From IMG/VR virus record IMGVR_UViG_3300031565_000079, positions 1-45,508 of that record: 45,508 bases of DNA; one strand, written 5' to 3'. Position numbers and translations under genes: made by a program. Positions 1 to 45,508 of the stretch are shown piece after piece. The first letter of the stretch is position 1. Each line of letters starts with the position of its first letter. The DNA is from a virus. Under the pieces are notes generated by a model. It was given only the letters and a program-made list of their open reading frames with translations. It was not told the origin of the DNA and made no database searches.

Positions 1-127
1 ATATACCGTTGAATGGCTTAATCCCAACAATACCGTAATCTATAGCAACCTTTATAGTGTATTGACTTTGTAGTCTTTCATATAGAGTTTTCATTAATAC
101 CCTAAATCCCTCTAAATCTTGTTCTCT
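1..127. repeat. Terminal exact repeat: bases 1-127 equal 45382-45508, so the contig closes on itself (unique length 45381 bp)
   Basis: Read directly. The window begins atataccgttgaatggcttaatcc and the same string restarts at 45382 and runs to the last base, ending gttctct in both copies. Confidence 0.95.
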
Positions 128-3057: not shown

Positions 3058-3072
3058 GTTTCTCTGCGAAAC
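3058..3072 (-). promoter_or_regulatory. Conserved 15-nt hairpin motif GTTTCGCAGAGAAAC (as read on the minus strand), copy 1
   Basis: Exact 15-mer lying between the nuclease stop (3074) and the RBS of the next gene. The stem is GTTTC/GAAAC with a 5-nt loop. Confidence 0.6.
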
Positions 3073-6829: not shown

Positions 6830-7087
6830 TTAATCAGTGAATCCTGCTTTTATCTCACTTACAGGTTCACCATTATATTCTTCAGGTTTCTCTGCGAAAC
6901 TTTCCACCGCCATCTCAAAGTGATATTTCAATTCTTCACCCTTTGGCACTCTGTTCTTTAACAGTAAATGTCCATTAATTTTTATTTCTATTTCTTCTCC
7001 TGCTCCTAATGAAAAATCAGTATGGTATTTATATTCATTTCTTTCATCGCTGTAATAAAATTTAGTTAATGGTTTCCAGACTTTCAT
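6830..7087 (-). CDS. Hypothetical protein (85 aa)
   Basis: Track ORF with an ATGA-type overlap with the upstream gene. It contains an internal copy of the 15-nt motif. Confidence 0.55.
   Translation of the reverse strand: MKVWKPLTKFYYSDERNEYKYHTDFSLGAGEEIEIKINGHLLLKNRVPKGEELKYHFEMAVESFAEKPEEYNGEPVSEIKAGFTD
6886..6900 (-). promoter_or_regulatory. Conserved 15-nt motif GTTTCGCAGAGAAAC, copy 2 (inside a CDS)
   Basis: Exact 15-mer in the same orientation relative to transcription as the other copies. It encodes SFAEKP. Confidence 0.4.
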
Positions 7088-7980: not shown

Positions 7981-8099
7981 TCGTTCTTACTAAATTTCAA
8001 TCGGACAAAAGTTCGCTAATATATCTTATGTAAAGTAAACTCTACAGAATACAATAAAATCAACTATAACCGAATCTCTTTTATTGTCCTTATAATTTT

Positions 8100-8306
8100 T
8101 TAGATTTCAATCCCCCTTTCTCTATAAAAATTTCTAATATCTTCCAAAGCTTCTTCAAGTGCTTTAATAAGTAAAGGATGTGGTTTAGTTCCATTTCTCC
8201 ATCGTCTAATCGTTCTTGAGGATATTTCAGCTCTCTTTGCGACATCCTCGATAGTGAGTCCAGTTTTTTCTTTAATTTTTATTACTTGATTTAACAAATC
8301 GTCCAA
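8100..8306 (-). CDS. Small HTH (Cro/XRE-like) transcriptional regulator
   Basis: Track ORF of 68 aa with a TTG start. The HTH segment is LTIEDVAKRAEISSRTIRRWRNG. The gene has its own promoter and terminator. Confidence 0.65.
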   Translation of the reverse strand: MDDLLNQVIKIKEKTGLTIEDVAKRAEISSRTIRRWRNGTKPHPLLIKALEEALEDIRNFYRERGIEI

Positions 8307-8346
8307 ACACTCTTACGTCAGCAAAATTGCCTATCCTCCATTTTTT

Positions 8347-8362
8347 ATCTTACGTATAAGAT
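8347..8362. promoter_or_regulatory. Palindromic operator candidate ATCTTA-N4-TAAGAT overlapping the -10 of the HTH promoter
   Basis: The plus strand reads atcttacgtataagat. The half-site TCTTACGT recurs at 8311-8318, just upstream of the HTH start codon. Confidence 0.5.
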
Positions 8363-8386
8363 AGCACAAAATCACTCAGAAGTCAA
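8358..8386 (-). promoter_or_regulatory. Sigma70-type promoter TTGACT-N17-TATCTT (with TGc extended -10) for the HTH gene
   Basis: The minus strand reads ttgacttctgagtgattttgtgctatctt. It shares TTGACTT and 15 identical nt (attttgtgctatctt) with the lipoprotein promoter at 12915-12943. Confidence 0.65.
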
Positions 8387-8393
8387 ATTAATT

Positions 8394-8966
8394 TTAAAAC
8401 TCGAACGTAACTCCAGCCGTAATACCAGAATAAGTTGGATGTAGAGGGACAAGATTCAGACCCGTAAATAAACCAAATCTATTTCTTTTCAGTAACTCAT
8501 TAATGATGTCCTGTTGCACTTTCATTAAAGATTGCAAATTCTTCACAACTTCCATTAAGGCTTGATTATCAGCCTCTGCTTCGGTATAGAGCTTCTGATA
8601 TCCGATCGCAATTTCGGCGATGTCTTTATAAGCAATTAAGAGTTCAGAATACGTATCGGGGATAATCAGATTCTCTATAGTAGGAATTGTTATCCCCACA
8701 ATACTAACAGAAGCCAGAAGACATACAATAATAAAAACTCTAAAATGTTTTTTTAGCCGATCAGCCAAATCTTTAGCCTCTTCTTTTCTATTCTCAATTC
8801 TCTTCTCTATTTTTTTTACTTTCTCTTCTTCTACTTTGGCTTCTGCTTTTACCTCGTTAATTTTCTCTTTGAGTTTTGAATTATCCCTTCTTGTAAAAAA
8901 TACATACACCAATACAGAAAAAATAATCGCAAAAGCACCTGTTATCCAGTTCCATATATTTTTCAT
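8394..8966 (-). CDS. Membrane protein with an N-terminal TM helix, a Lys/Glu coiled coil and a second TM helix; candidate spanin-like lysis accessory protein
   Basis: Track ORF of 190 aa. TM1 is ITGAFAIIFSVLVYVFF, followed by the coiled coil KLKEKINEVKAEAKVEEEKVKK and TM2 VFIIVCLLASVSIVGITI. The C-terminus ends GVTFEF. It is the last gene of the lysis cluster. Confidence 0.6.
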   Translation of the reverse strand: MKNIWNWITGAFAIIFSVLVYVFFTRRDNSKLKEKINEVKAEAKVEEEKVKKIEKRIENRKEEAKDLADRLKKHFRVFIIVCLLASVSIVGITIPTIENLIIPDTYSELLIAYKDIAEIAIGYQKLYTEAEADNQALMEVVKNLQSLMKVQQDIINELLKRNRFGLFTGLNLVPLHPTYSGITAGVTFEF

Positions 8967-9112
8967 ACTTTACCTCCTTTCTTAAAAATCAGATTCCATA
9001 TCTTTTTAGGTACGACCATAATTATATGCCAGTACCATTTACTACAGCTAACGATATTAAAAATTGTATATATCGCAGTTGCTGATAAAAACACGTAAAA
9101 TACAATATTCAT
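8963..9112 (-). CDS. Small membrane protein (49 aa) in the lysis cluster
   Basis: Start trimmed to the ATG at 9112, which follows ggaggtggaaaATG. The protein begins MNIVFYVFLSATAIYTIFNIV. It has an ATGA overlap with the next gene. Confidence 0.55.
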   Translation of the reverse strand: MNIVFYVFLSATAIYTIFNIVSCSKWYWHIIMVVPKKIWNLIFKKGGKV

Positions 9113-9122
9113 TTTCCACCTC

Positions 9123-9572
9123 CTACGGGGTACAAATCCCACCTTCACACTTATATTCTTTTCTTTCTCTTTTCTCTTTCTTTAATAGGGAATTTATTTT
9201 ATCCTGAATATACTTCTTTGTTTGTAATCCGATAATTCGGTCAACTTCTTTTCCTTCTTTGAATAAGATCAATGTAGGTATTCCTAAAACTCTGTACTTC
9301 ACATAGATATCCCTACTATTGTCGATGTCTAACTTAAATACTTTTAGTGTCGGATTGTCCTTTGCCAATTCCTCTACAATGGGAGCTAATTTTTTACAAG
9401 GTGAACACCAATCAGCGTAGAAGTCCACCATCGCAAATTTCGCCTCAAGAACTATGTTCCAAGTCTCACTATTCACTTCTATCACCTTATTCTCCTCCCC
9501 TGGTGTGGTGATTCCATCGGAACAGCCACAAAATAATATCAAACTCAAAATTAATACAAATAATATTCTCAT
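9123..9572 (-). CDS. Exported (probably lipid-anchored) thioredoxin-fold protein
   Basis: Track ORF of 149 aa. The signal sequence is MRILFVLILSLILFCGCSDG, the active site is DFYADWCSPCKKL (CxxC), and a cis-Pro region GIPTLILF is present. Confidence 0.75.
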   Translation of the reverse strand: MRILFVLILSLILFCGCSDGITTPGEENKVIEVNSETWNIVLEAKFAMVDFYADWCSPCKKLAPIVEELAKDNPTLKVFKLDIDNSRDIYVKYRVLGIPTLILFKEGKEVDRIIGLQTKKYIQDKINSLLKKEKRERKEYKCEGGICTP

Positions 9573-10015
9573 TTATTTACCTCCTTATATAAATCTATTA
9601 CTCGGTTAATCCAACCTCTTATGTAAAGTTTTGCAGTTTTGCATTTAGTATAAAATTCTATTCTTTTTAAAAGATAATCTCTCCAATCAGCGGACACACC
9701 TAAAAACTCTTTTGCTCTACTTATTCCACAGTTAACCGCTGTATCGAAAACGATTAAGTTAAGTGGTGAAGTTAACTGGTCACAATTAGCCTTTAGCCAG
9801 TAGTTCTCGTAATAAATTTTTTCAGCTATTGCAAACGCTTCGTCTTTCTTCTGTTTATTAAAAAGTTCTTCTATCTCCATAACTTCTTTAGGATGACTAC
9901 GGTAAGAGATACCCCAAATAGTTAAACCACCAGGGTCTTTGGGGTCATTGCTTATAAAGCCTTCCCACTTCAATACAAACTTAATTGCCTTCTCGAAATC
10001 CTTATTTGTTTCCAT
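9569..10015 (-). CDS. Endolysin, glycoside hydrolase family 108-like
   Basis: Track ORF of 148 aa. KWEGFISNDPKDPGGLTIWGISYR matches the GH108 EGGxxxDPxDxGGxTxxGI signature. Confidence 0.7.
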   Translation of the reverse strand: METNKDFEKAIKFVLKWEGFISNDPKDPGGLTIWGISYRSHPKEVMEIEELFNKQKKDEAFAIAEKIYYENYWLKANCDQLTSPLNLIVFDTAVNCGISRAKEFLGVSADWRDYLLKRIEFYTKCKTAKLYIRGWINRVIDLYKEVNK

Positions 10016-10241
10016 TTAATTTAGATATCTCCAGTCGGAGTTCAACAACCTGTCCAGTATTCATGTCTACCGCATCTTTCACACTTGCTGTATTAGCAGA
10101 ATCTGCCTGAACAATAACCGCTAAATCTTTTATTACATCTTTTAATCCGTTTACTGTGGGTATTAACTTCCATAAAAGAAAGAAAGTTATTGCAGCGGGT
10201 ATCCCAACTGTGGTTACAATGTTTACTATATCAAATTCCAT
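10002..10241 (-). CDS. Holin-like single-TM protein
   Basis: Start trimmed to the ATG at 10241, which follows aaaaggagtgattttaATG. The TM segment is VTTVGIPAAITFFLLWKLIP. The gene lies immediately upstream of the endolysin and overlaps it. Confidence 0.5.
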   Translation of the reverse strand: MEFDIVNIVTTVGIPAAITFFLLWKLIPTVNGLKDVIKDLAVIVQADSANTASVKDAVDMNTGQVVELRLEISKLNGNK

Positions 10242-10246
10242 TAAAA

Positions 10247-11908
10247 TCACTCCTTTTCAACTTTACTTATGTCCCCTTTTTCTTTAATTACTTTAGTCCA
10301 GTCGTCTTTACTTTTAGATACTTTAGTCGTATCTCCTTTTTCTTTACTCACCAGAATCCAATCATCCTTTCCTTTTTCTACTTTAGTAGAATCAGCTTTT
10401 TCTTTTATTACTTTTACCCAATGATAAATAGCTTTAAGATTTGCAGTTATAGATGAAACAATATTTACCGTAGAATTTAAAGCTCTTAATATACCACTAC
10501 TTAAAACCGAAGTTATAGATGTCGCAATATTAACCGTTGAAGTTAATGCTTCTTTGATACCTCTACTTAAAGACGAGATTATCGAAGTTGTAATCGCCGA
10601 TGTACTGGTTAATGTTGCCTTAATTCCCCTGCTCAATACTGAAATTATTGACGTTGTTATTGCTGATGTTGAATTTAATACCTCTTTAATTCCTCTACTT
10701 AAAAGTGATGTAATCGATACTGCGATATTTGTCGTAGAGGTTAACGCTTCCGTTATTCCTCTACCTAAAGAAACTCCTCCACCTGTTCCATAAAGACTGA
10801 TTGTTTTATTAGCAACCAATGTAAATCCGACATTATCACAAGGAATTTGGTCGTATACATTATACCAAGTACCGGTAGCAGGAGTTAGACTGTCCACGTC
10901 TATCTTACCTGCACTTCCCCATAACCCAATATAATCTCCTTCTTCTACATCGATATCAACAACAAAGGTTTGTTTAGACCCAACAAGAACAACACCTGCA
11001 CCATTTCCATTATCAACGGTTTCATAATCACGAGTAGTTAAATTATTCCCGCTTGCCGAAAAAGTAGCCACCTTGCAGCCAGCTATCTGTGTATTAGCCC
11101 AAATCTCTACTTTAGTTATCTTCCCAGTAGCATTGGCAGGGTTATTTGCATCTACTCTTGTGGAGAAAGTATAATTATCATTGCTATTTATAGCTGGACT
11201 ACCTATATTAATTTCCCCACCAATAAAACACACTATAGTTGCTACAGAGTTTAAAGCTATAGCACTAATGCCATATACACTCATACAATAATTAGCAGCC
11301 AAAGTAAAAGTTGTATTAACGCAGGCAGTTTGGTCGCCTGCTAAATAATAAACTCCACTACCACCACTGGTATCACATTCAAGTTGGGCAGCTTCGGCTG
11401 TAAAATATAATCCGATATGATCCCCCATCGTTACAGGAAGATTAACGGCAAAACGTTTAGCAGAACCAGCTGCTATGGCACCAAGATTACTACTTGCGGA
11501 ACGAGCAGTAAATTTAGCAGGGTAACCAGTTGGGTCAGGACGATAAAAAATCGCTGCGTAAGCCCCAGTCATAGACACTGCTGCCCAAATATCAACACTT
11601 GTAATTACCCCTGTAGCGTTAGCAGGGTTAGTTAAATCTATAGAAGTATAATTTCCATATAAATAAGAATCCCTACCAATGCAATCGCTACCTATATCTA
11701 TTTCAGTCAAATTTAGTCTATCTACTTTATTTAGAATTTCTATTCTTTTGTCAATGAGTGTAAAATCGAGTTTATGTTGAAGTCCACAATGAGGACAAAC
11801 CAATATATTATTCTCGTAGATATTACCTTTAATTTCATATCCTTTATGGCAAGAACAACATTGTATTAAAGAATCATCTATTGGTGTTCCTATACTAATT
11901 TGACCCAT
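10247..11908 (-). CDS. Tail fibre/receptor-binding protein with an N-terminal zinc ribbon, a duplicated beta domain and two C-terminal tandem-repeat arrays
   Basis: Track ORF of 553 aa. It has CCSCHK...CPHCG, then NPANATGVITSVDIWAA and NPANATGKITKVEIWAN, about five 21-aa repeats (SRGIKEALTSTxxIxTSIxSxL) and three 17-aa repeats (DDWxKVxKEKGDxxKV). Confidence 0.65.
   Translation of the reverse strand: MGQISIGTPIDDSLIQCCSCHKGYEIKGNIYENNILVCPHCGLQHKLDFTLIDKRIEILNKVDRLNLTEIDIGSDCIGRDSYLYGNYTSIDLTNPANATGVITSVDIWAAVSMTGAYAAIFYRPDPTGYPAKFTARSASSNLGAIAAGSAKRFAVNLPVTMGDHIGLYFTAEAAQLECDTSGGSGVYYLAGDQTACVNTTFTLAANYCMSVYGISAIALNSVATIVCFIGGEINIGSPAINSNDNYTFSTRVDANNPANATGKITKVEIWANTQIAGCKVATFSASGNNLTTRDYETVDNGNGAGVVLVGSKQTFVVDIDVEEGDYIGLWGSAGKIDVDSLTPATGTWYNVYDQIPCDNVGFTLVANKTISLYGTGGGVSLGRGITEALTSTTNIAVSITSLLSRGIKEVLNSTSAITTSIISVLSRGIKATLTSTSAITTSIISSLSRGIKEALTSTVNIATSITSVLSSGILRALNSTVNIVSSITANLKAIYHWVKVIKEKADSTKVEKGKDDWILVSKEKGDTTKVSKSKDDWTKVIKEKGDISKVEKE
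10250..10790. repeat. In-frame coding tandem repeats (units of about 51 nt at 10250-10440 and about 63 nt at 10443-10790)
   Basis: Diverged DNA repeats are visible, for example attcctctacttaaa and atacctctacttaaa recurring with 63-nt phasing. They correspond to the protein repeats listed for the CDS. Confidence 0.7.
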
Positions 11909-11918
11909 AAGTTACTCC

Positions 11919-12716
11919 TTAATCTAACGTAATATCCAATGCACCGATAGCATATTCAGCTACGTCATTAATACCGATTACTTTAGTGGGGTCTATTGTT
12001 GCCCAGATTAACGTATTCGTTGCACTTGCTGCATCGGTCAAATGATTCAGTAATAAGAAAAACGCTACCGTTCCCCACGAAGCGGTTGCGGTGTCAAAGG
12101 TTATTGCAGCGGTGTTCTGAGTCGCACCAGCAACAGCAGCATCCCAGCCATTACAAACTTCACGAGCATAAGCACCACCTGATACTTCAGTTCCAGCGAC
12201 TCCCGAATCTGTTGGACTTGCGGTAAATAGAGCTACATACAAGTTGGTTTCTACTGTATATGGGGTTGTCTTGAACACATGGTCTAATAACTTGTTTGCA
12301 AGATTATTACATACTCCGCCAGCACTGAAAACGACATCTATATCGCCTGCTACAATGTATAAGTTAGTTCCGATAGGACAAGTCTTACTTACTGTGAAAT
12401 CTCCGTGAGCCAAGAAGTTACCAGCCGTTATTGCGTCAAAGATAGCCCAGTATGCAATAGTTCCCCAGTCTGCGGCAGCTTGTGCAAAAGTTATCTGGTT
12501 TGTATTCGCTGTTGCTCTTGCAACAGCAGCATTCCAAACATTCATAACTACCCTTGCATAACCGCCCCCCGATGGTTCGGCTATACCTGCTCCTGTGTCT
12601 AATGGGTCAGTGGTAGATAACGCTATGTAGATGTTTGCTGGTACTGAAAATGGTGTAGTTTTTAATACGTGGTCTAATAGTTTAATCTCTAATGCATCAC
12701 TTAATGAACCTGCCAT
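11919..12716 (-). CDS. Tail fibre/receptor-binding-type protein made of two tandem copies of one domain
   Basis: Track ORF of 265 aa. LLDHVLKTTPF...YIALSTTDP...GGGYARV...WNAAV...ITFAQAA.DWGTI recurs as LLDHVFKTTPY...YVALFTASP...GGAYARE...WDAAV...ITFDTAT.SWGTV. Confidence 0.6.
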   Translation of the reverse strand: MAGSLSDALEIKLLDHVLKTTPFSVPANIYIALSTTDPLDTGAGIAEPSGGGYARVVMNVWNAAVARATANTNQITFAQAAADWGTIAYWAIFDAITAGNFLAHGDFTVSKTCPIGTNLYIVAGDIDVVFSAGGVCNNLANKLLDHVFKTTPYTVETNLYVALFTASPTDSGVAGTEVSGGAYAREVCNGWDAAVAGATQNTAAITFDTATASWGTVAFFLLLNHLTDAASATNTLIWATIDPTKVIGINDVAEYAIGALDITLD

Positions 12717-12781
12717 GAAAAATCATTCCTTTCTTTTTTTTATCACCCCCTTTATAAATTTAATAGATACTATTTAAGAAA

Positions 12782-12819
12782 CCCCCCCTACATCGCCGAT
12801 AGGCGATTATACCCCCCCC
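12782..12819. repeat. Homopolymer pair C7 (12782-12788) and C8 (12812-12819) flanking the palindrome ATCGCCGATAGGCGAT (12792-12807)
   Basis: Counted base by base on the plus strand as acccccccta catcgccgat aggcgattat acccccccct. Confidence 0.9.
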
Positions 12820-12834
12820 TTTTTTGGATATCAA
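12806..12834 (-). promoter_or_regulatory. Consensus-like sigma70 promoter TTGATA-N17-TATAAT for the tail-fibre genes; its spacer contains a G8 run
   Basis: The minus strand reads ttgata tccaaaaaagggggggg tataat, with -35 at 12829-12834, -10 at 12806-12811 and a spacer of exactly 17 nt. Confidence 0.65.
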
Positions 12835-12895
12835 GTTGCATTTCTTAAAAAGAGCTGTATCTCTTATTAAGAAAGCGTTAAAAAAAAATCAGTAT

Positions 12896-12910
12896 GTTTC
12901 TCTGCGAAAC
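12896..12910 (-). promoter_or_regulatory. Conserved 15-nt motif GTTTCGCAGAGAAAC, copy 3, sitting 4 nt upstream of the -35 of the lipoprotein promoter
   Basis: Exact 15-mer lying between the two divergent promoters. Confidence 0.55.
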
Positions 12911-12914
12911 ACTA

Positions 12915-12943
12915 TTGACTTTTCCGTCATTTTGTGCTATCTT
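12915..12943 (+). promoter_or_regulatory. Sigma70-type promoter TTGACT-N17-TATCTT (TGc extended -10) for the plus-strand lipoprotein cassette
   Basis: The sequence is ttgacttttccgtcattttgtgctatctt. It is near-identical to the HTH gene promoter at 8358-8386. Confidence 0.65.
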
Positions 12944-12959
12944 GTTTAAGGGTATTAAT

Positions 12960-13418
12960 ATGAGAATTAAATATCTTGTTATTTTATTTTTAATATTACT
13001 CTTAACTGGTTGTGGTGGAGTTACTACACCATCAATTAATGTGTCTGGCAATTGGACAATGACCAGCATTACTACATCAACTACTACTCCATTCTTTCAT
13101 GTTGGTTTGGTAACAACCTCAAAATGCAATATTGTTGATAATTCTGGTTCATTAACTATCTATGGTTTCCATATTATCGGTTCAGAATTTTTCAACTGGA
13201 ATACAGGTTACGGAACATTCAACAATTCTATTATTACTGCAAATATAAGTGGTAGTTATATCAATGTTTATGGTTCAACCGTATCTACTATCGTTTATTT
13301 TGAAGGTACTATTAATCCCAATGGTATCTCTGGGAGCGGAACTTGGGTTCAAACATTGAGCGTATATGGCTATTTTGATTCCGCTTCAGGAACTACTATT
13401 TTTATTAAAGGTGGTTAG
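12960..13418 (+). CDS. Lipoprotein (152 aa), opposite-strand moron next to the tail-fibre genes; candidate superinfection-exclusion factor
   Basis: Start trimmed to the ATG at 12960. The signal plus lipobox is MRIKYLVILFLILLLTGCGG, and the mature part is Thr/Ser/Gly/Asn-rich. Confidence 0.7.
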   Translation: MRIKYLVILFLILLLTGCGGVTTPSINVSGNWTMTSITTSTTTPFFHVGLVTTSKCNIVDNSGSLTIYGFHIIGSEFFNWNTGYGTFNNSIITANISGSYINVYGSTVSTIVYFEGTINPNGISGSGTWVQTLSVYGYFDSASGTTIFIKGG

Positions 13419-13419
13419 T

Positions 13420-13599
13420 ATGAAAATCATTAAAATAATTTTCATAGTAATTTCATTACTTATAGTAACTTACATTCTATTTCCTAAATATCAGATAATC
13501 AGTAATTCAGGAAGTATCTATAAATTAAACAAGTTAACTGGTCAGGTAACACGAGAGTACAATCCCATAAAGAAGCCAACTATTTTGTTAAAACCTTAG
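13420..13599 (+). CDS. Small N-terminally anchored membrane protein (59 aa)
   Basis: Start trimmed to the ATG at 13420, which follows aaaggtggttagtATG. The protein begins MKIIKIIFIVISLLIVTYILF. Its 3' end overlaps the convergent giant gene by 20 nt. Confidence 0.5.
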   Translation: MKIIKIIFIVISLLIVTYILFPKYQIISNSGSIYKLNKLTGQVTREYNPIKKPTILLKP

Positions 13600-16500
13600 G
13601 TTTACTGACTTTGTTTTTTAAAATTGTGGGTTTCTTTACTCCCAACGTTTTTTTTAATATTTCAGGTTTTTTAAATTTTGCAGGTTCAGCTTCTTTTTCC
13701 TTCCCCTGTTCTAAAACGTATTTAGTCCAGATTAAACGCCTGATATCATCGGTTTCTCCTTGAAGCCAATCATCTACTCCGTCAATAGTTCGATAAGGCT
13801 GATTGTAAGGAAGTCCAATTACTTTACAAATACCACTAATTCCATGTTGAAATTTAGACTCCCACGTCTTATAAGTTGCAGCCTTAATAAATTCTTCTCC
13901 GAAAGACAATGGTGCTGGCATATAACCACCGTAACCTTCCATTATATTGACGACTATCGAACCTACAAAGAACCATCCACCGATGTAGTAAACCCCCATA
14001 TCTTTAACGAGTTCTTTCCAGTCTTTGGGTGGTCTGCCTCTGGTAATTGTCCCGATTAGAACAGCAGGAAGAAACCATCCCCAAAGCACTCTATGAGCAA
14101 AAGTTCCTGGAGAGATTTGTCCAGCTTTCAATTTACCGAACATATCATGCCTAATATAATTCTGGTTTTTATTAATTTGGTTTTGAAATAGATTAAATAA
14201 ATTAGCTACCGTACCATCTCTAAACCATTGCGGAAGGTCTTTGGTTAATGCTGCGGGTTGAGTCTTTCTCATGACCTCACCTGTACGTTTTATGGCTTGT
14301 CTGTCTAAATCTGCTAAATCTGTGAATTGTATTGGTTTCCCTTGTATTTTATGAGTATTCATTACTGAATTGTATGTTCCTATCCAAACTGACAAAACAG
14401 CAAACTCATCTAATGCCCTGATTAAGAATAATGTTTTCATTCTTATATCTTTAGTTTTTCCTGTAAGTATTTGTTTAGCATCAGTAGTCTCCATCCATTC
14501 CCTCATTATCTTGTCAATCTGTCCTTTTCTGGCTCTCATTTGAGGGTCTTTTTGGAAAGCAAATTGTTTGGTTTCATTATAATGAAGGGCTACCTGCTCT
14601 ATTCCACTCAAGATAGTTGCTAAATCTGTTTCTGCTACTGCGTTGCACAGCGAAACAAGTTGTTTTGATCCTGATATGATATTGATTCCTAACATAGAAA
14701 AAAAGGCACTTGTCCTGAGAAACATTAAAGCCTTATCTGAAGTGCTAAGAATTTTACTTTGTTTAGCTTTTACAGAATCCTTAAACCATTTGACGATGTT
14801 ATCATAAGCGATTCTTCCATATCTTGGATTTTGAATAATTGCATTTTTAAGTTCTTCATTAGTAAGTAAATTATTGATATCTATTACAGTTTCTTCATAA
14901 GCCTTATAGTGTTCGACCTTTGCCATATCACGCAATAAATTAGATACACAATCTATGTTGATAATATTTTCAGCACGATGTGTTCTTGGTTCACGGAATC
15001 CTTGTTCTAAATAAGCCCGTCTTGTGGTCGGGTTGCGTTCCATGTCTATCGCTACACTATTATCTAACTCTTCATTTATAATCTGAATACCAAATCGATT
15101 TTTAACTTTCTTTAAATGTACCCCTCGCACTCTTACATCAAACTCATCAAGTTGATCTCCTTGTGTTAATTGATATTTCTGATAATATTCAGCCATAGCT
15201 TTTTCTTCTTTAGTGAGACTATTGACGACATTTTCAATGTCCTTATCTGTGAATTTATAAGGTTCTTTCATACCCTTCATCAGATATACCCCAGCTCCCT
15301 GTATATGTCTTTTAGCGTCTTCATCTAAAGAACACAAATACACACCAGTTCTTTGAGAAGGCGTGAGCATTAAGTCTCCCGTTCTCTCTTGTAAGAACTT
15401 AACGATATTTATTTTGTCGTCTGTTATAGATTCTTGATAATCTTCTATCTTTTTGAAGGTACTTAATAATTCATCATTAGTGCATTTATTTACTGCATCG
15501 TAAAAAGTCTCACACCATAGACCTCTTTTTTCTCCGTCCATTCTTTCAAAGAGTGATTCATCTAAAGTAGTATTCATCCAGAAATGACTCCAGATGTCTT
15601 TGATTTTCTTTTTTGAACTTTCTAATTCCCTCATTTCTTGCTTGATATTCCTGCCTATGGGAATTTCTTTGCCTTTATAAAGCGTCTTAATGAGGTCTTG
15701 TACGAGTTCTTCTGTCCTTCTCCCCTTTTGTATTTTAAGTAATTTACCTTTAGTTTTTCCTATATGAGCAAGTTGTAAGATAGTATCATGAACATCCTCT
15801 AACTGTGCTATAGTCATGTCATTCAAAGGAATTTTCTTTATGATATCTATGACTTCTTGAGGAATCCTTAGGTTTGTGTTGCCTTCCTTAATTTCCCTTT
15901 CAATGAATTTGGCTGTTTCTTCTCTGGCATGTAAGGTCTTCTGTTGTCTCTTTTTTAAATCAAACGTTTCCTTAATCGCTTCAATCTTATCTCTGTAATC
16001 TACAGCGATGTTTTGAGTAGGAAGTTTATTAATATCATTGATTAATTTTTTGATGTATTTTTTTTGTGCTTCTCTCTCCTTCGCCTTTGCTTTAACTTCT
16101 TTTTGATGTTCTTTTATTTTCTCTATTTTTTCTTCAAATTTTTCTTTAGTGGCAAAGATTCCTTCTTTCTTTCCTGCTTTAAAGACTTCTCTGGCTGTTC
16201 TTTCTTCGCCTTTTAAGACGTACTTCAACATATCACTTTCATAAAGTTCTATTTTCTCGCCTTTAGTCTGTCCTGTAACCTCTCTAACTTTAGCCTTTAC
16301 TTGTTTAGGAGTTAATTCTTCTCCCTCGGTGTAGATATCTTTAATCTTTACATCTTTAGGAAATTCTGGTTCTTCTTCTGGTTCTGCCATTTCTGCTGTT
16401 CCTTTAGGTGGTATAGGTGGTTTGGGTGGTTCTTCTACTGCCTTTTTGACCTTAATCTGCAAATATTGTTCTATTTCTTCTGAATATTTATTTTTAAATG

Positions 16501-18859
16501 ATTCTGGCATTATATCCATAACTATTTCAGGATTAATCCCGAATTTTGATGAGTTATCAATAGCCCACTTATAGGCATCTAATTCTGTTGCTAAAAATTT
16601 ATCTCTTCCCATTAATTCTGGAAAATATGTGCCTTCATCCATAGTTGTTAAATGCCCTATTTCATGTAGAGCTTCCCCTATCTTTTGTACCTCAGATTTT
16701 CCCTTAGTCCCAACAATAATTTCAGGGGTTGGGGTTGGAGAATAAAGAGTGATTTTAGAGTCAGGGTTTTCACCAATAACAATCCCAAACGAGTCCCTTA
16801 CATTATCTTTAAATTCCTGGAATATAAGTGGTTCAAGTTCTTTGGAGATAGTAGGTTCTTTCCCTTCTACCTTCAATTCCTCTTTCGGTGCAATCTTTTC
16901 TTCAACTTTCTTTAATACTTCTTTTGGTGTAATTTCTTTACCAACTAATTCTTCTAATTTTCTTATCGTTTTTTCGCTTACAAATTCTGACGTAACATCA
17001 GCTTTAGGTAGTTCAGTAACCTTTACTTTTTCTAAGGGAATACCATATTTTTTAGCATATATTTCTTCTTTAGTAGGTTCTTTGGGTTTTGTCTTCATTT
17101 CTTCTTCGGTTTTATAAGCATAGGTTTCCATTTCTGATTCTCTCTCAAAAATCCCCAATATTGCTTTTTGTATATCTGGGTCAGTCTTAACTTTTTCCAT
17201 AATTGTTATTGGGTTTAAGTTAGGCAATATTTTAGCTATTGTTTTTAGTTGTTTTTCTACTATATTTCCAATTAATCCCTTTTTCTGTTCTGGTGAAAGT
17301 TCAGTTAAATCTATAGTCTGTTCAACGTTTGTAGTTATTGCAGATGCCCCACCACCGAGAACTGCTCCGATTGAAGTGGATTCCGCAGTACCTTCCCAAA
17401 TACTTCTCGTTTTATCCCAACCTATTGTTGCAACGAGATTTTCTCCTATTTGTTGTGAAAATTCTTGGAAACCTTCGAGTCCTGCATGTAGCAATCTATC
17501 AACCCAAAAGTTTCCACCAAATTTAGTAAACAACCATTCTAATCCTATATATTCCAAAGCACCTTCTATTACACCAGCAGTAACTGCGAGTGGCATTGCT
17601 TTACTAACTTTAACGTCTGCTTCTCTTGCTTCTTGATACATTGAACCTGTTTGGTACATTCCGAAAGCAACAGCAGCAGCATGTGGACTACCCGTTAAGA
17701 CACTTATACCTACTGCACCAGCCAATGATGTAGCACCGCTTCCTAATTGAAAGAGCCAAGCAGCAGTCTTATTGTCTAAATCAGGGTGTAATTCTTTTTT
17801 TGATAAAAATTCACGATTTGCTTTTATTATTTCCTGTGATTTATCAACTAAAAATTTATCTATCGGTTTGTATAATGCTGAATCTTTTGTTTTACTAATA
17901 GCTTTCATTAAATCTGTATACTTACCTTCATCGCCCTTAAATACATTGGGAGTGCCTTCTACTGCTTGCATATTCTCACCCACAAGACGCATTAATCCAC
18001 CAACAGCTTGAGGAGTGGAATAGATTCCATGTATAATACCTTTTATCGGTGCAGCAACATACTTATTAGCTCTGTCCAAATCTAACATAGGAGGTCGTCT
18101 CATCTTTTGTATTTCTACTTCTTGTTCTTCTAAATGTTTCCTTCTTATAAATTCCTGTTTCTTTTGAACAGAATAAATCTCATCTCTCTTGGAAATGTCG
18201 GTTTGCAATGTAGAAATTAAAGAATTGAATCGATTTACTTCTTTGTTATAATTAGCAATAATGGTAGGTTTTATTGTTTCGGGTATTCCCTCTAAGGTAG
18301 TATCAAATTCAGTGAGGTTTTTTTGCAGTTTAAGATAATCCTTATAATTCTTCTCAATAGATTCATTTAATACATCTAAAGGATTTTCTTCAGGTTCTTC
18401 TTCTATTGCTCCTGCACTACCACCCCCCCCTGATTTTTCTTTCTTATCTGCCTCTTCTTCTTTCAAAACCGAATTAAGTAAAGAGCTGGGTATTTCACCA
18501 ATCCCACCCATCCTTTGAGACCAACCAGCAGGTTCTTTCTCTTTTTTTTCTTCTTTCTCTCCTTGTAATTTACTTAATTGTTTGGCATAATCAGTGGCTG
18601 CTTTTGGCGTTTTAAATTTTCCCAAAAATTCTCCTGTTTTTCTATAATAATCAATGGCTTCTTGGTCTGATACTTTTCTCCCATTAATAATTGTAGGTAA
18701 TAATACTTCCACTCCATCAAAATTAAATGATTTTGAAAGGAGTGTACTAATTGAACCATCGGGATTTTTTATCACTGGTCGATTATTTAGATTTATATTG
18801 CCATACTCTAATATATCTGTTTCTTCTTCTTTTTTTAAAACTAAATCAAGTATTCCCAT
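13580..18859 (-). CDS. Giant virion protein (1759 aa) with an HExxH zincin motif, hydrophobic segments and long Lys/Glu-rich regions; candidate internal or ejection protein
   Basis: Single uninterrupted track ORF. ALHEIGHL is encoded at 16652-16666. Hydrophobic stretches include AAWLFQLGSGATSLAGAVGISVLTG. It follows two other candidate internal-protein genes. Confidence 0.85.
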   Translation of the reverse strand: MGILDLVLKKEEETDILEYGNINLNNRPVIKNPDGSISTLLSKSFNFDGVEVLLPTIINGRKVSDQEAIDYYRKTGEFLGKFKTPKAATDYAKQLSKLQGEKEEKKEKEPAGWSQRMGGIGEIPSSLLNSVLKEEEADKKEKSGGGGSAGAIEEEPEENPLDVLNESIEKNYKDYLKLQKNLTEFDTTLEGIPETIKPTIIANYNKEVNRFNSLISTLQTDISKRDEIYSVQKKQEFIRRKHLEEQEVEIQKMRRPPMLDLDRANKYVAAPIKGIIHGIYSTPQAVGGLMRLVGENMQAVEGTPNVFKGDEGKYTDLMKAISKTKDSALYKPIDKFLVDKSQEIIKANREFLSKKELHPDLDNKTAAWLFQLGSGATSLAGAVGISVLTGSPHAAAVAFGMYQTGSMYQEAREADVKVSKAMPLAVTAGVIEGALEYIGLEWLFTKFGGNFWVDRLLHAGLEGFQEFSQQIGENLVATIGWDKTRSIWEGTAESTSIGAVLGGGASAITTNVEQTIDLTELSPEQKKGLIGNIVEKQLKTIAKILPNLNPITIMEKVKTDPDIQKAILGIFERESEMETYAYKTEEEMKTKPKEPTKEEIYAKKYGIPLEKVKVTELPKADVTSEFVSEKTIRKLEELVGKEITPKEVLKKVEEKIAPKEELKVEGKEPTISKELEPLIFQEFKDNVRDSFGIVIGENPDSKITLYSPTPTPEIIVGTKGKSEVQKIGEALHEIGHLTTMDEGTYFPELMGRDKFLATELDAYKWAIDNSSKFGINPEIVMDIMPESFKNKYSEEIEQYLQIKVKKAVEEPPKPPIPPKGTAEMAEPEEEPEFPKDVKIKDIYTEGEELTPKQVKAKVREVTGQTKGEKIELYESDMLKYVLKGEERTAREVFKAGKKEGIFATKEKFEEKIEKIKEHQKEVKAKAKEREAQKKYIKKLINDINKLPTQNIAVDYRDKIEAIKETFDLKKRQQKTLHAREETAKFIEREIKEGNTNLRIPQEVIDIIKKIPLNDMTIAQLEDVHDTILQLAHIGKTKGKLLKIQKGRRTEELVQDLIKTLYKGKEIPIGRNIKQEMRELESSKKKIKDIWSHFWMNTTLDESLFERMDGEKRGLWCETFYDAVNKCTNDELLSTFKKIEDYQESITDDKINIVKFLQERTGDLMLTPSQRTGVYLCSLDEDAKRHIQGAGVYLMKGMKEPYKFTDKDIENVVNSLTKEEKAMAEYYQKYQLTQGDQLDEFDVRVRGVHLKKVKNRFGIQIINEELDNSVAIDMERNPTTRRAYLEQGFREPRTHRAENIINIDCVSNLLRDMAKVEHYKAYEETVIDINNLLTNEELKNAIIQNPRYGRIAYDNIVKWFKDSVKAKQSKILSTSDKALMFLRTSAFFSMLGINIISGSKQLVSLCNAVAETDLATILSGIEQVALHYNETKQFAFQKDPQMRARKGQIDKIMREWMETTDAKQILTGKTKDIRMKTLFLIRALDEFAVLSVWIGTYNSVMNTHKIQGKPIQFTDLADLDRQAIKRTGEVMRKTQPAALTKDLPQWFRDGTVANLFNLFQNQINKNQNYIRHDMFGKLKAGQISPGTFAHRVLWGWFLPAVLIGTITRGRPPKDWKELVKDMGVYYIGGWFFVGSIVVNIMEGYGGYMPAPLSFGEEFIKAATYKTWESKFQHGISGICKVIGLPYNQPYRTIDGVDDWLQGETDDIRRLIWTKYVLEQGKEKEAEPAKFKKPEILKKTLGVKKPTILKNKVSKPKVLTK

Positions 18860-32547: not shown

Positions 32548-32754
32548 TTATTTATATATTACTATTTCTATTTTCTTAAAGCCAGTTAGACCACCAAGAC
32601 AAAAGTCCATTGTTATATTCCCAGTAAAGTCAGGACTTTCCTCGAATATATGCCTTAATTGATTATTTATTTTTTCTAAAGTTTTGTCAATTTTAGTCAA
32701 CAATACGCCTCCTATATTATACAGAGAATAAATTTGGTCGTCAAGGTAACTCAT
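32548..32754 (-). CDS. Hypothetical protein (68 aa), translationally coupled to terL
   Basis: Track ORF whose ATG overlaps the terL stop codon (ATGA). Confidence 0.55.
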   Translation of the reverse strand: MSYLDDQIYSLYNIGGVLLTKIDKTLEKINNQLRHIFEESPDFTGNITMDFCLGGLTGFKKIEIVIYK

Positions 32755-35964: not shown

Positions 35965-36039
35965 TGGCGAGTCGAGTAGGATTTGAACCCACACTTTTAG
36001 TTCTGGAGACTAATGTGCTACCATTGACACTATCGACTC
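35965..36039 (-). tRNA. trnW: tRNA-Trp (anticodon CCA), with the 3' CCA encoded
   Basis: Hand-folded cloverleaf: acceptor GAGTCGA/TCGACTC, D arm GTGT-CAATGGTA-GCAC, anticodon arm TTAGT-CTCCAGA-ACTAA, T arm GTGGG-TTCAAAT-CCTAC, discriminator G, then CCA. Confidence 0.9.
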
Positions 36040-36537: not shown

Positions 36538-36705
36538 TCAATCTACTACTATAGTCTTCCCCTTCGTTCTGACACATACTCGATGGACTTGTCTTTTTCT
36601 GTAACACTTTTTACACATTTCAATTACCTTATCCTCATATATGAAGTAACGAGGGGGAGGATCTATTGGTTTTCCACATTTAGAACATGTTTCGCAGATA
36701 AACAT
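36538..36705 (-). CDS. Zinc-ribbon mini-protein (55 aa)
   Basis: Hand translation gives MFICETCSKCGKPIDPPPRYFIYEDKVIEMCKKCYRKRQVHRVCVRTKGKTIVVD, with RBS taggaggaaataATG. The first codons overlap an imperfect copy of the 15-nt motif. Confidence 0.5.
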   Translation of the reverse strand: MFICETCSKCGKPIDPPPRYFIYEDKVIEMCKKCYRKRQVHRVCVRTKGKTIVVD

Positions 36706-38474: not shown

Positions 38475-38633
38475 TTTTCTCCTTCCGTACACCTATGTTT
38501 TGGGTATGGGGTATTATATATATATATTGTCTGCACTTGGCGAGAGACCCCCACCCCCCCTTGCTCGATATAATACTGGCTCACTATTTACTTTACATAA
38601 TTATTCTTATAGGACGTTGTAAGCTAAAACATG

Positions 38634-40248: not shown

Positions 40249-40263
40249 GTTTCGCAGAGAAAC
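40249..40263 (+). promoter_or_regulatory. Conserved 15-nt motif GTTTCGCAGAGAAAC, copy 4
   Basis: Exact 15-mer, preceded by ATAAAATAAAT and followed by aaaaggagg (the RBS of the next gene). Confidence 0.6.
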
Positions 40264-40283: not shown

Positions 40284-40538
40284 ATGAATAAAGGAGAAAG
40301 GGCTTTAAAAAACGTTAGGGCGTATAAGGAGTACAAAGAACATTATCATTATATAATAACAAAAAGAAAGAAGGATACTGAAATGGAAAAAGTTAATAAA
40401 TATGGTTGGGTGTGGAATTTAATCAATGGGTTATATTGGTGTAAAACTCCTATAGAGAGTGGGATATACTGCGGAATCACTCCCGAAGAATTAGACAATA
40501 AACTTTATTATATAAAAATAGGTGGCAAAATCAAATAA
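40284..40538 (+). CDS. Hypothetical protein (84 aa); its N-terminus MNKGERAL resembles that of ORF 2853-3044
   Basis: Track ORF with RBS aaaaggaggttaaatatattATG. Confidence 0.65.
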   Translation: MNKGERALKNVRAYKEYKEHYHYIITKRKKDTEMEKVNKYGWVWNLINGLYWCKTPIESGIYCGITPEELDNKLYYIKIGGKIK

Positions 40539-41354: not shown

Positions 41355-41369
41355 GTTTCGCAGAGAAAC
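41355..41369 (+). promoter_or_regulatory. Conserved 15-nt motif GTTTCGCAGAGAAAC, copy 5
   Basis: Exact 15-mer, preceded by ATAAAATAAAC and followed by ggaggtg (RBS). Confidence 0.6.
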
Positions 41370-45354: not shown

Positions 45355-45508
45355 TGCTTTTCGCCTCCTTCTCAAAATAAAATATACCGTTGAATGGCTT
45401 AATCCCAACAATACCGTAATCTATAGCAACCTTTATAGTGTATTGACTTTGTAGTCTTTCATATAGAGTTTTCATTAATACCCTAAATCCCTCTAAATCT
45501 TGTTCTCT
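45344..45508 (-). CDS. 3' end of the junction-spanning HNH endonuclease gene (same gene as 1-346; 45382-45508 duplicates 1-127)
   Basis: The reading frame from 1-346 continues ...KPFNGIFYFEKEAKSSGS and ends at the TAA at 45344-45346. Confidence 0.6.
   Translation of the reverse strand, partial: REQDLEGFRVLMKTLYERLQSQYTIKVAIDYGIVGIKPFNGIFYFEKEAKSSGS
45382..45508. repeat. Terminal exact repeat, copy 2 (equals 1-127)
   Basis: See 1-127. Confidence 0.95.

Follow-up and report, generated by a model that had tools for sequence, protein, structure and literature searches.

Is a run of eight guanines inside the spacer of a phage promoter a switch, or is it a fixed part of that promoter? The question is raised by positions 12782-12834 of an uncultured phage genome (IMG/VR record IMGVR_UViG_3300031565_000079); in what follows, the window is the whole stretch of 45,508 nt that was analysed. 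Phase variation by homopolymer tracts in promoters is familiar from bacteria, where it acts on Neisseria porA and opc, Bordetella fim, Mycoplasma vlp, and Haemophilus hif. A preliminary description of the phage locus had proposed that gain or loss of one G would move the spacer from 17 to 18 or 16 nt, gating two receptor-binding genes and possibly the lysis genes behind them. We compared the locus with its metagenomic relatives and weighed this proposal against other accounts of the same sequence.

Genome and Gene Context

An exact direct repeat of 127 nt at the two ends of the window (1-127 and 45382-45508) indicates that the genome is complete (circular or terminally redundant), at ~45.4 kb. 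Its GC content is 34%, and nearly all genes lie on the minus strand. The encoded terminase, portal, major head proteins, 1759-aa protein, fibres, and lysis block make up a podophage-like genome, and a tRNA gene is present at 35968-36039 on the minus strand (Rfam RF00005, 60.9 bits). No phage RNA polymerase domain was found among the ~40 ORFs scanned. Other near-consensus promoters occur on the coding strand, for example at 32744 and 32690 upstream of the portal gene. Ribosome-binding sites are strong and frequently read GGGGG, which argues against hosts that lack such sites.

The gene directly downstream of the promoter (11919-12716, minus strand) encodes a 265-aa fibre protein with two tandem Gp80 (podophage GP4 fibre I) domains (Pfam PF23140, E = 2e-65) that also matches PDB 8JOU chain a (E = 1.4e-9). 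Its conserved leader (12717-12753, minus strand; AAAGGGGGTGATAAAAAAAAGAAAGGA...) carries the ribosome-binding site. Next comes a second, variable fibre-like gene of 553 aa (10247-11908, minus strand), in whose place relatives have genes of unrelated length, and then the lysis block (8394-10250, minus strand), with an 82-aa holin-like protein, a GH108 endolysin, a thioredoxin, and an Rz-like spanin. This gene order suits the proposed role of the promoter in driving two fibre genes and the holin, endolysin, and spanin genes behind them.

Two points of gene context in the preliminary description are revised here. The gene on the upstream side is on the other strand, and the region is a divergent intergenic one; the first gene downstream is the Gp80-family fibre protein. 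The upstream gene (12960-13418, plus strand) encodes a 152-aa lipoprotein with signal peptide MRIKYLVILFLILLLTGC and lipobox LTGC, for which Pfam and PHROG searches gave no match. It is followed by the gene for a small membrane protein of 59 aa (13420-13599, plus strand), and the divergent small genes of 67-71 aa at the same position in relatives were read by eye as homologues of the latter. A divergent promoter, TTGACT-N17-TATCTT with a TG extension (12915-12943, plus strand), would drive the lipoprotein pair; it is 95% conserved in lineage L009 and recognisable in L012, L013, L015, and L027. In relatives the divergent small genes are preceded by long leaders of 110-130 nt, on the opposite strand, with internal repeats and long-range complementarity (L013, ~2090-2230, with CCAAGTCGTG twice; L026, ~1080-1215; L027, ~1080-1200). 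Rfam searches assigned no family to the locus or to these leaders.

Promoter Anatomy

On the minus strand the locus reads GCAAC-TTGATA-TCCAAAAAAGGGGGGGG-TATAAT-CGCCTATCGGCGATGTA-GGGGGGG-TTTCTT. The −35 hexamer TTGATA (12829-12834) is separated from the −10 hexamer TATAAT (12806-12811) by a 17-nt spacer (12812-12828) of composition TCC-A6-G8, in which A6 occupies 12820-12825 and G8 12812-12819. A second run, G7, falls in the predicted 5′ leader (12782-12788), ~30 bp 3′ of the spacer run. Between them lies a perfect palindrome, ATCGCC-N4-GGCGAT (12792-12807), which overlaps the −10 hexamer by 2 nt and covers the expected start site. The hexamers, the spacer with its G8, the leader run, and the palindrome starting within the −10 had all been described correctly to the base. 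Folded as a DNA hairpin, the palindrome gives −6.2 kcal/mol (z = −1.4), and the structure predicted for the leader RNA does not exceed that of shuffled sequences (z = +0.41).

TTGATA-17-TATAAT matches the assumed host consensus at 11 of 12 positions and is the top-scoring site in a promoter scan of 8000-18000. A lone match of this quality to the sigma-70 consensus is nothing out of the ordinary: the 45.5-kb window holds five, against a mean of 2.7 in shuffles. Its position is more telling, being oriented toward the fibre genes inside the 243-bp non-coding divergent gap, 90 nt from the fibre ATG, and an 11/12 match on the correct strand of that gap has p ~0.007, an estimate derived from the shuffle scan. 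Homopolymers of G or C are likewise in excess. Two runs of at least 8 occur in the window against 0.31 expected, and four of at least 7 against 1.29 (first-order expectation); two of the latter lie 23 nt apart at the promoter. Since this pair recurs in relatives, it is not attributable to chance.

Conservation in Related Lineages

Relatives of the fibre protein number in the hundreds in metagenomes, and the upstream region was recovered for seven lineages, whose sequences were compared in promoter orientation. Contig counts overstate independence, since some of the ENA and JGI assemblies probably come from shared samples. Phages in GenBank gave no DNA match to the locus in near or distant mode, and searches of IMG/VR turned up no copy of either the promoter or its G-run/palindrome/G-run pattern. 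In the genome collection the only fibre homologue was a distant one, from an Atribacterota MAG.

All seven lineages have the hexamers and the A-tract in common. TTGATA is kept in six, L026 having TTGACA, and the −10 hexamer is TATAAT or TATACT throughout. Four lineages have two runs of at least 6 G, one adjoining the −10 and the other ~30 bp downstream. Next to the window lineage stand three contigs, L009-11 (fibre ~83% identical), with a TCC-A7-G7 spacer, TATAAT, the palindrome of the window, and a G6 leader run. In L012 (fibre 95% identical) the spacer is TCC-A8-G6, followed by TATACT, and in L026 (fibre 75% identical) it is GCAAG-A6-G6, again with TATACT; both have a G6 leader run and, at the start-site position, a different palindrome, ACTTTCG-N6-CGAAAGT. 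The remaining three lineages have TATAAT and no G-run in the leader, and their spacers read TCC-A8-CGTGG (L013/14), TC-A6-TATTCTGC (L027-29), and TC-A6-TAATTTGA (L015-18). Spacer length is constant within each promoter type, 17 nt with the G-run and 16 nt without it.

Between the window and the L009 lineage, 55 of 56 positions of the core (from the −35 to the leader G-run) are identical (98.2%), compared with 82.8% in the 61 nt upstream of the core and 82.5% in the fibre gene. It is mainly because of this footprint that we accept the promoter as functional. Together with the near-consensus hexamers and the placement in the divergent gap, it bears out the earlier reading of the sequence as a promoter, one that is most likely functional. 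The paired G-runs and their ~30-bp spacing are kept around two different palindromes. As these share a position across lineages, the start-site palindrome and G-runs probably form a regulatory site, one that we infer would tune or time expression. The idea of a repeated operator was rejected, the −10/+1 palindrome being present as a single copy in the genome.

The explanation that we favour, with some reservation, is that the locus works as a host-type (sigma-70-like) promoter from which the fibre-lysis operon of a complete podophage-like genome is transcribed. Host RNA polymerase would start a few bases downstream of 12806 and transcribe the fibre and lysis genes. A promoter at this place would compensate for the two-gene insert on the opposite strand, with a promoter of its own, that splits the fibre genes from the upstream late genes. 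The G-run would then be a fixed architectural part of one version of the promoter, and the two runs would bracket the start-site palindrome on roughly the same helical face.

In the sister lineage L009 (~1497-1770; also L010 and L011), an extra ORF of ~90 codons is present between promoter and fibre gene, so this interval tolerates insertions. At the equivalent place L034-36 have an HNH endonuclease gene.

G-Run Length and Spacing

If the G8 run acted by slippage, one G more or less would give a spacer of 18 or 16 nt and, in a subpopulation, reversibly lower fibre and lysis expression. The spacers do not bear this out. Following the earlier suggestion that related contigs be compared, we found 17 nt in all 10 contigs of the four G-run lineages (six with A6G8, three with A7G7, one with A8G6, plus L026 with GCAAG-A6G6), and a G-run spacer of 16 or 18 nt in none. 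The six contigs of the same strain (the window, L006/L020, L008/L021, L019, L022, and L023) all have A6G8, and those that extend beyond the leader all have G7. The leader run differs by a true indel between lineages, G7 against G6. In the spacer, changes in the length of the G-run are offset by opposite changes in the A-run, which we ascribe to selection holding the −35 and −10 at 17 nt.

Several observations are nevertheless what slippage would produce. G8 sits within an otherwise optimal 17-nt spacer, and lineages differ in G-run length (6-8 in the spacer, 6-7 in the leader, and G7 or G8 at a second locus near 38.5 kb). The boundary between A and G shifts while the runs stay unbroken, as slippage followed by compensation would give. 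Each such step is, however, explicable by a single G-to-A transition at the boundary, and uninterrupted runs after two boundary shifts, an outcome improbable under random substitution, could reflect either selection for unbroken runs or slippage with compensation. Relatives manage with G6 or without a G-run. Progeny are expected to depend on the fibre genes, and an OFF genome would then gain nothing. Moreover, changing the spacing of an 11/12 promoter by one base usually tunes output few-fold rather than turning it on or off. Among the G-run lineages, whose other members have G6-G7, the G8 of the window lies at the low edge of slippage-prone lengths; still, in Campylobacter jejuni G8 tracts are reported to switch at high rates, and they can do so rapidly in a repair-deficient host (PMC3401435). 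Low-frequency slippage at the G-runs is possible, but its use as a switch is without positive evidence in the assembled contigs, and we regard a slipped-strand switch at this promoter as unlikely. The absence of 16- or 18-nt G-run promoters from 10 contigs, combined with the dispensability of the G-run, argues for stabilising selection on spacing rather than switching. G8 thus looks like a fixed part of the promoter.

Assembly breaks near the runs bear on the same issue. In ERZ27256828 one contig ends ...GTAGGGGGG and another starts GGGTTTCTT, which places the break inside the leader G7. Another contig, from JGI, stops 5 nt past that run; it is probably from the sample of ERZ27256828, as both assemblies hold the same second strain. 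Contig ends fall at window positions 12777-12788 in L007 (start), L023 (end), and L022 (end), and elsewhere in this intergenic region in L029 and L024 (both starts), that of L029 lying within a spacer that has no G-run. Breaks at the leader G7 in the assemblies of one sample would fit slippage, although they are at the leader run and not the spacer run; they may reflect heterogeneity or a problem of coverage or quality. One could go further and take the A/G patterns with their constant sum of 14, the assembly breaks, and the run-length differences in the leader (G7/G6) and at 38.5 kb (G7/G8) together as signs of frequent slippage, the promoter toggling among 16, 17, and 18 nt as a dosage control for fibre and lysis proteins. 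We consider this distinctly unlikely. If true, it would have no described precedent among viruses as a simple-repeat switch located in a promoter.

Other G-runs in the genome were noted. The second locus (38548-38560, minus strand) is a G7-T-G5 element in the non-coding gap after the small-terminase gene and reads G8TG5 in the related phage L041; a promoter-like TTGATA-N18-TATACT lies near it, at 38663-38634. The 1759-aa gene contains a coding G8 (18423-18430), in frame within Ser-Gly-Gly-Gly-Gly-Ser, and the longest such run of the fibre gene itself is only G6 (12565-12570). A G-quadruplex formed by the G8 and G7 of the promoter was considered and not favoured. Only in the window lineage are the runs long enough for four GGG, relatives having G6 and G6, and the central loop would be ~23 nt.

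Orientation of the Regulatory Cassette

The promoter, its G-runs, and two further palindromes (15 and 34 nt) make up a regulatory cassette of 140 bp (12775-12914, minus strand in the window) that is inverted in relatives. In a blastn comparison with L012, intergenic positions 49-188 match in reverse at 81.7% identity, and both flanks match directly; the cassette is likewise reversed in L013 and L026. It faces the fibre genes in the window lineage and one sister lineage, and the divergent small genes in five lineages (L012, L013/14, L015-18, L026, and L027-29). Lineages with the opposite orientation have ~125 nt of additional sequence and, judged by eye, a further A-rich stretch that resembles a promoter ahead of the fibre leader, such as TTGTAA-N16-TATAAT in L015. 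The fibre leader itself is present whichever way the cassette faces, in every lineage but L026, where it differs.

In five of seven lineages the cassette points away from the fibre gene, which is consistent with another history, in which the promoter-like sequence is unused in the window's orientation, the cassette is a leftover of serving the divergent genes, and transcription of the late operon reads through to the fibre and lysis genes. Neither strand has a predicted terminator-like site between the 1759-aa gene and the fibre gene, and the ~2.7 matches of 11/12 that chance gives per window also fit such an account. Read-through would, however, have to pass 640 nt of genes on the opposite strand and run against the conserved promoter of these genes. 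It also leaves unexplained a core that is 98% conserved between two fibre-facing lineages next to 83% in adjoining non-coding DNA. Finally, the away-facing lineages carry the other promoter-like stretch before the fibre leader, which suggests that the operon needs a start of its own. We therefore hold read-through as the sole source of fibre transcripts to be improbable and infer that transcription starts at the promoter in the window.

Opposite orientations in relatives, one of which has a fibre protein 95% identical to that of the window, could also mean that a recombinase actively flips the cassette, or a 59-bp promoter segment within it, so that either the fibre-lysis operon or the lipoprotein genes are driven. 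Inverted repeats of 12 nt (12770-12781 and 12841-12852, 11/12) do flank this 59-bp segment, and several contigs end within the intergenic region. Such repeats are, however, at chance level for AT-rich DNA (~0.6 expected, an estimate), and they do not coincide with the ends of the 140-bp block. Orientation is uniform within five strains and 18 contigs (6/6, 3/3, 2/2, 4/4, and 3/3), and contigs that enter from the lipoprotein side cross the whole cassette before breaking. A resolvase, invertase, or integrase domain was found in none of the phage ORFs scanned, though the host might supply such an enzyme, and the ~125 nt of additional sequence between lineages speaks for rearrangement or exchange instead of a clean flip. 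An active invertible promoter is thus very improbable. With orientation constant within strains, no recombinase found, and repeats at chance level and off the block ends, the difference in orientation looks like the result of evolutionary rearrangement or exchange.

Palindromes and a Repeated Stem-Loop

A 15-nt palindrome, GTTTCGCAGAGAAAC (12896-12910, minus strand), forms the upstream end of the cassette and adjoins the −35 hexamer of the divergent promoter; the inverted block has its left breakpoint where this stem-loop ends. The window contains five exact copies (3058-3072, 6886-6900, 12896-12910, 40249-40263, and 41355-41369), against 1.6 expected even with one mismatch allowed, and a near-copy at 36689-36703. 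The exact copies all have the sense orientation of local transcription, and three of them have a stop codon directly before and the next ribosome-binding site directly after. The copy in the cassette is 100% conserved in L009, and the element occurs in the same setting in the related IMG/VR contigs L039/L041 and L056. A scan of IMG/VR for the 15-mer returned mostly chance matches, plus two related contigs. The stem-loop could be a signal at the RNA level or a recombination hotspot. Two small genes directly after copies of it (~3044, minus strand; 40284-40538, plus strand) begin MNKGEKAL... and MNKGERAL..., near-identical starts that suggest a cassette of small genes that is duplicated or mobile.

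A 34-nt palindrome (12841-12874), with 14-nt arms complementary at 13 of 14 positions around a 6-nt centre, lies immediately upstream of the −35. Its core, AAGAGATACAGCTCTT, is conserved in five lineages.

Discussion

The evidence points to a conserved host-type promoter, carried by a phage on a rearrangeable cassette, that is ordinary rather than a switch. Its likeness to the homopolymer promoters of bacteria is one of anatomy only, as far as the compared sequences go: in both, a promoter for surface or receptor-contact proteins has a mononucleotide run in its −35/−10 spacer, where slippage by one base would alter the spacing. In the bacterial systems, however, tract and spacer vary between and within strains, whereas every G-run contig of the phage locus has 17 nt, and the variable spacing of those systems is not seen here. 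Bacterial tracts are usually 9-15 bases long, those of the phage locus 6-8. The bacterial genes are dispensable contingency genes, and those behind the phage promoter are probably essential virion and lysis genes.

The preliminary description was not aware of any account of such switching as a phage strategy. For homopolymer switching in general this is too wide, as hypermutation of polyG tracts in phage receptor-binding genes has been published; for a homopolymer in a promoter spacer, our literature search found no description of such a switch in a phage. Hypermutable polyG tracts are attributed to receptor-binding genes of Campylobacter phages (Sorensen et al., 2021, Cell Rep 35:109214, as cited in PMC10877375 and PMC12823448). 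They resemble the window in having G-runs in a phage genome adjoining receptor-binding genes and differ in being coding, frameshift-acting, and of demonstrated length heterogeneity, the promoter runs of the window being non-coding. Were the promoter a switch after all, contingency switching at promoters would reach beyond bacteria to the viruses that infect them.

The rearranged cassette invites other comparisons. PeSL cassettes of T4-type phages are repeated short units of promoter and stem-loop that mark where insertions, deletions, and rearrangements between close relatives begin or end (PMC2839356, PMC4122927). The 15-nt stem-loop, present five times and bounding, in one copy, a cassette rearranged between lineages, is reminiscent of these. 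The window differs in repeating the stem-loop only and not the promoter, in an unrelated sequence, and in having the stem-loop at three sites directly between a stop codon and a ribosome-binding site. With E. coli fimS, the invertons of Bacteroides, and the G segment of Mu with Gin, the locus shares a short promoter block that occurs in both orientations between divergent gene sets that include fibres. Unlike them, it comes with no recombinase gene found in the window and no significant flanking repeats, and orientation varies between lineages only.

Phage T5 has a lipoprotein exclusion gene beside its receptor-binding gene (llp-oad). The small lipoprotein gene of the window likewise has its own promoter, adjoins the fibre genes, and would be transcribed away from them; there is no sequence similarity to the T5 gene, and the analogy comes from gene arrangement. 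By that analogy, the opposite-strand genes may be an accessory, exclusion-type module.

Contigs with fibre homologues have been binned as Atribacterota (77% and 49% identity) and WOR-3 (P0016, P0034, and L030), a tentative hint as to the host of this phage group from subsurface or sediment samples. With its core near-invariant amid changing surroundings, the promoter offers a usable model for an uncultured phage group that possibly infects Atribacterota. It would also illustrate clearly how stabilising selection can hold spacer length while homopolymer boundaries shift. More broadly, a small regulatory cassette that has been turned round between related phages would rewire which genes it drives.
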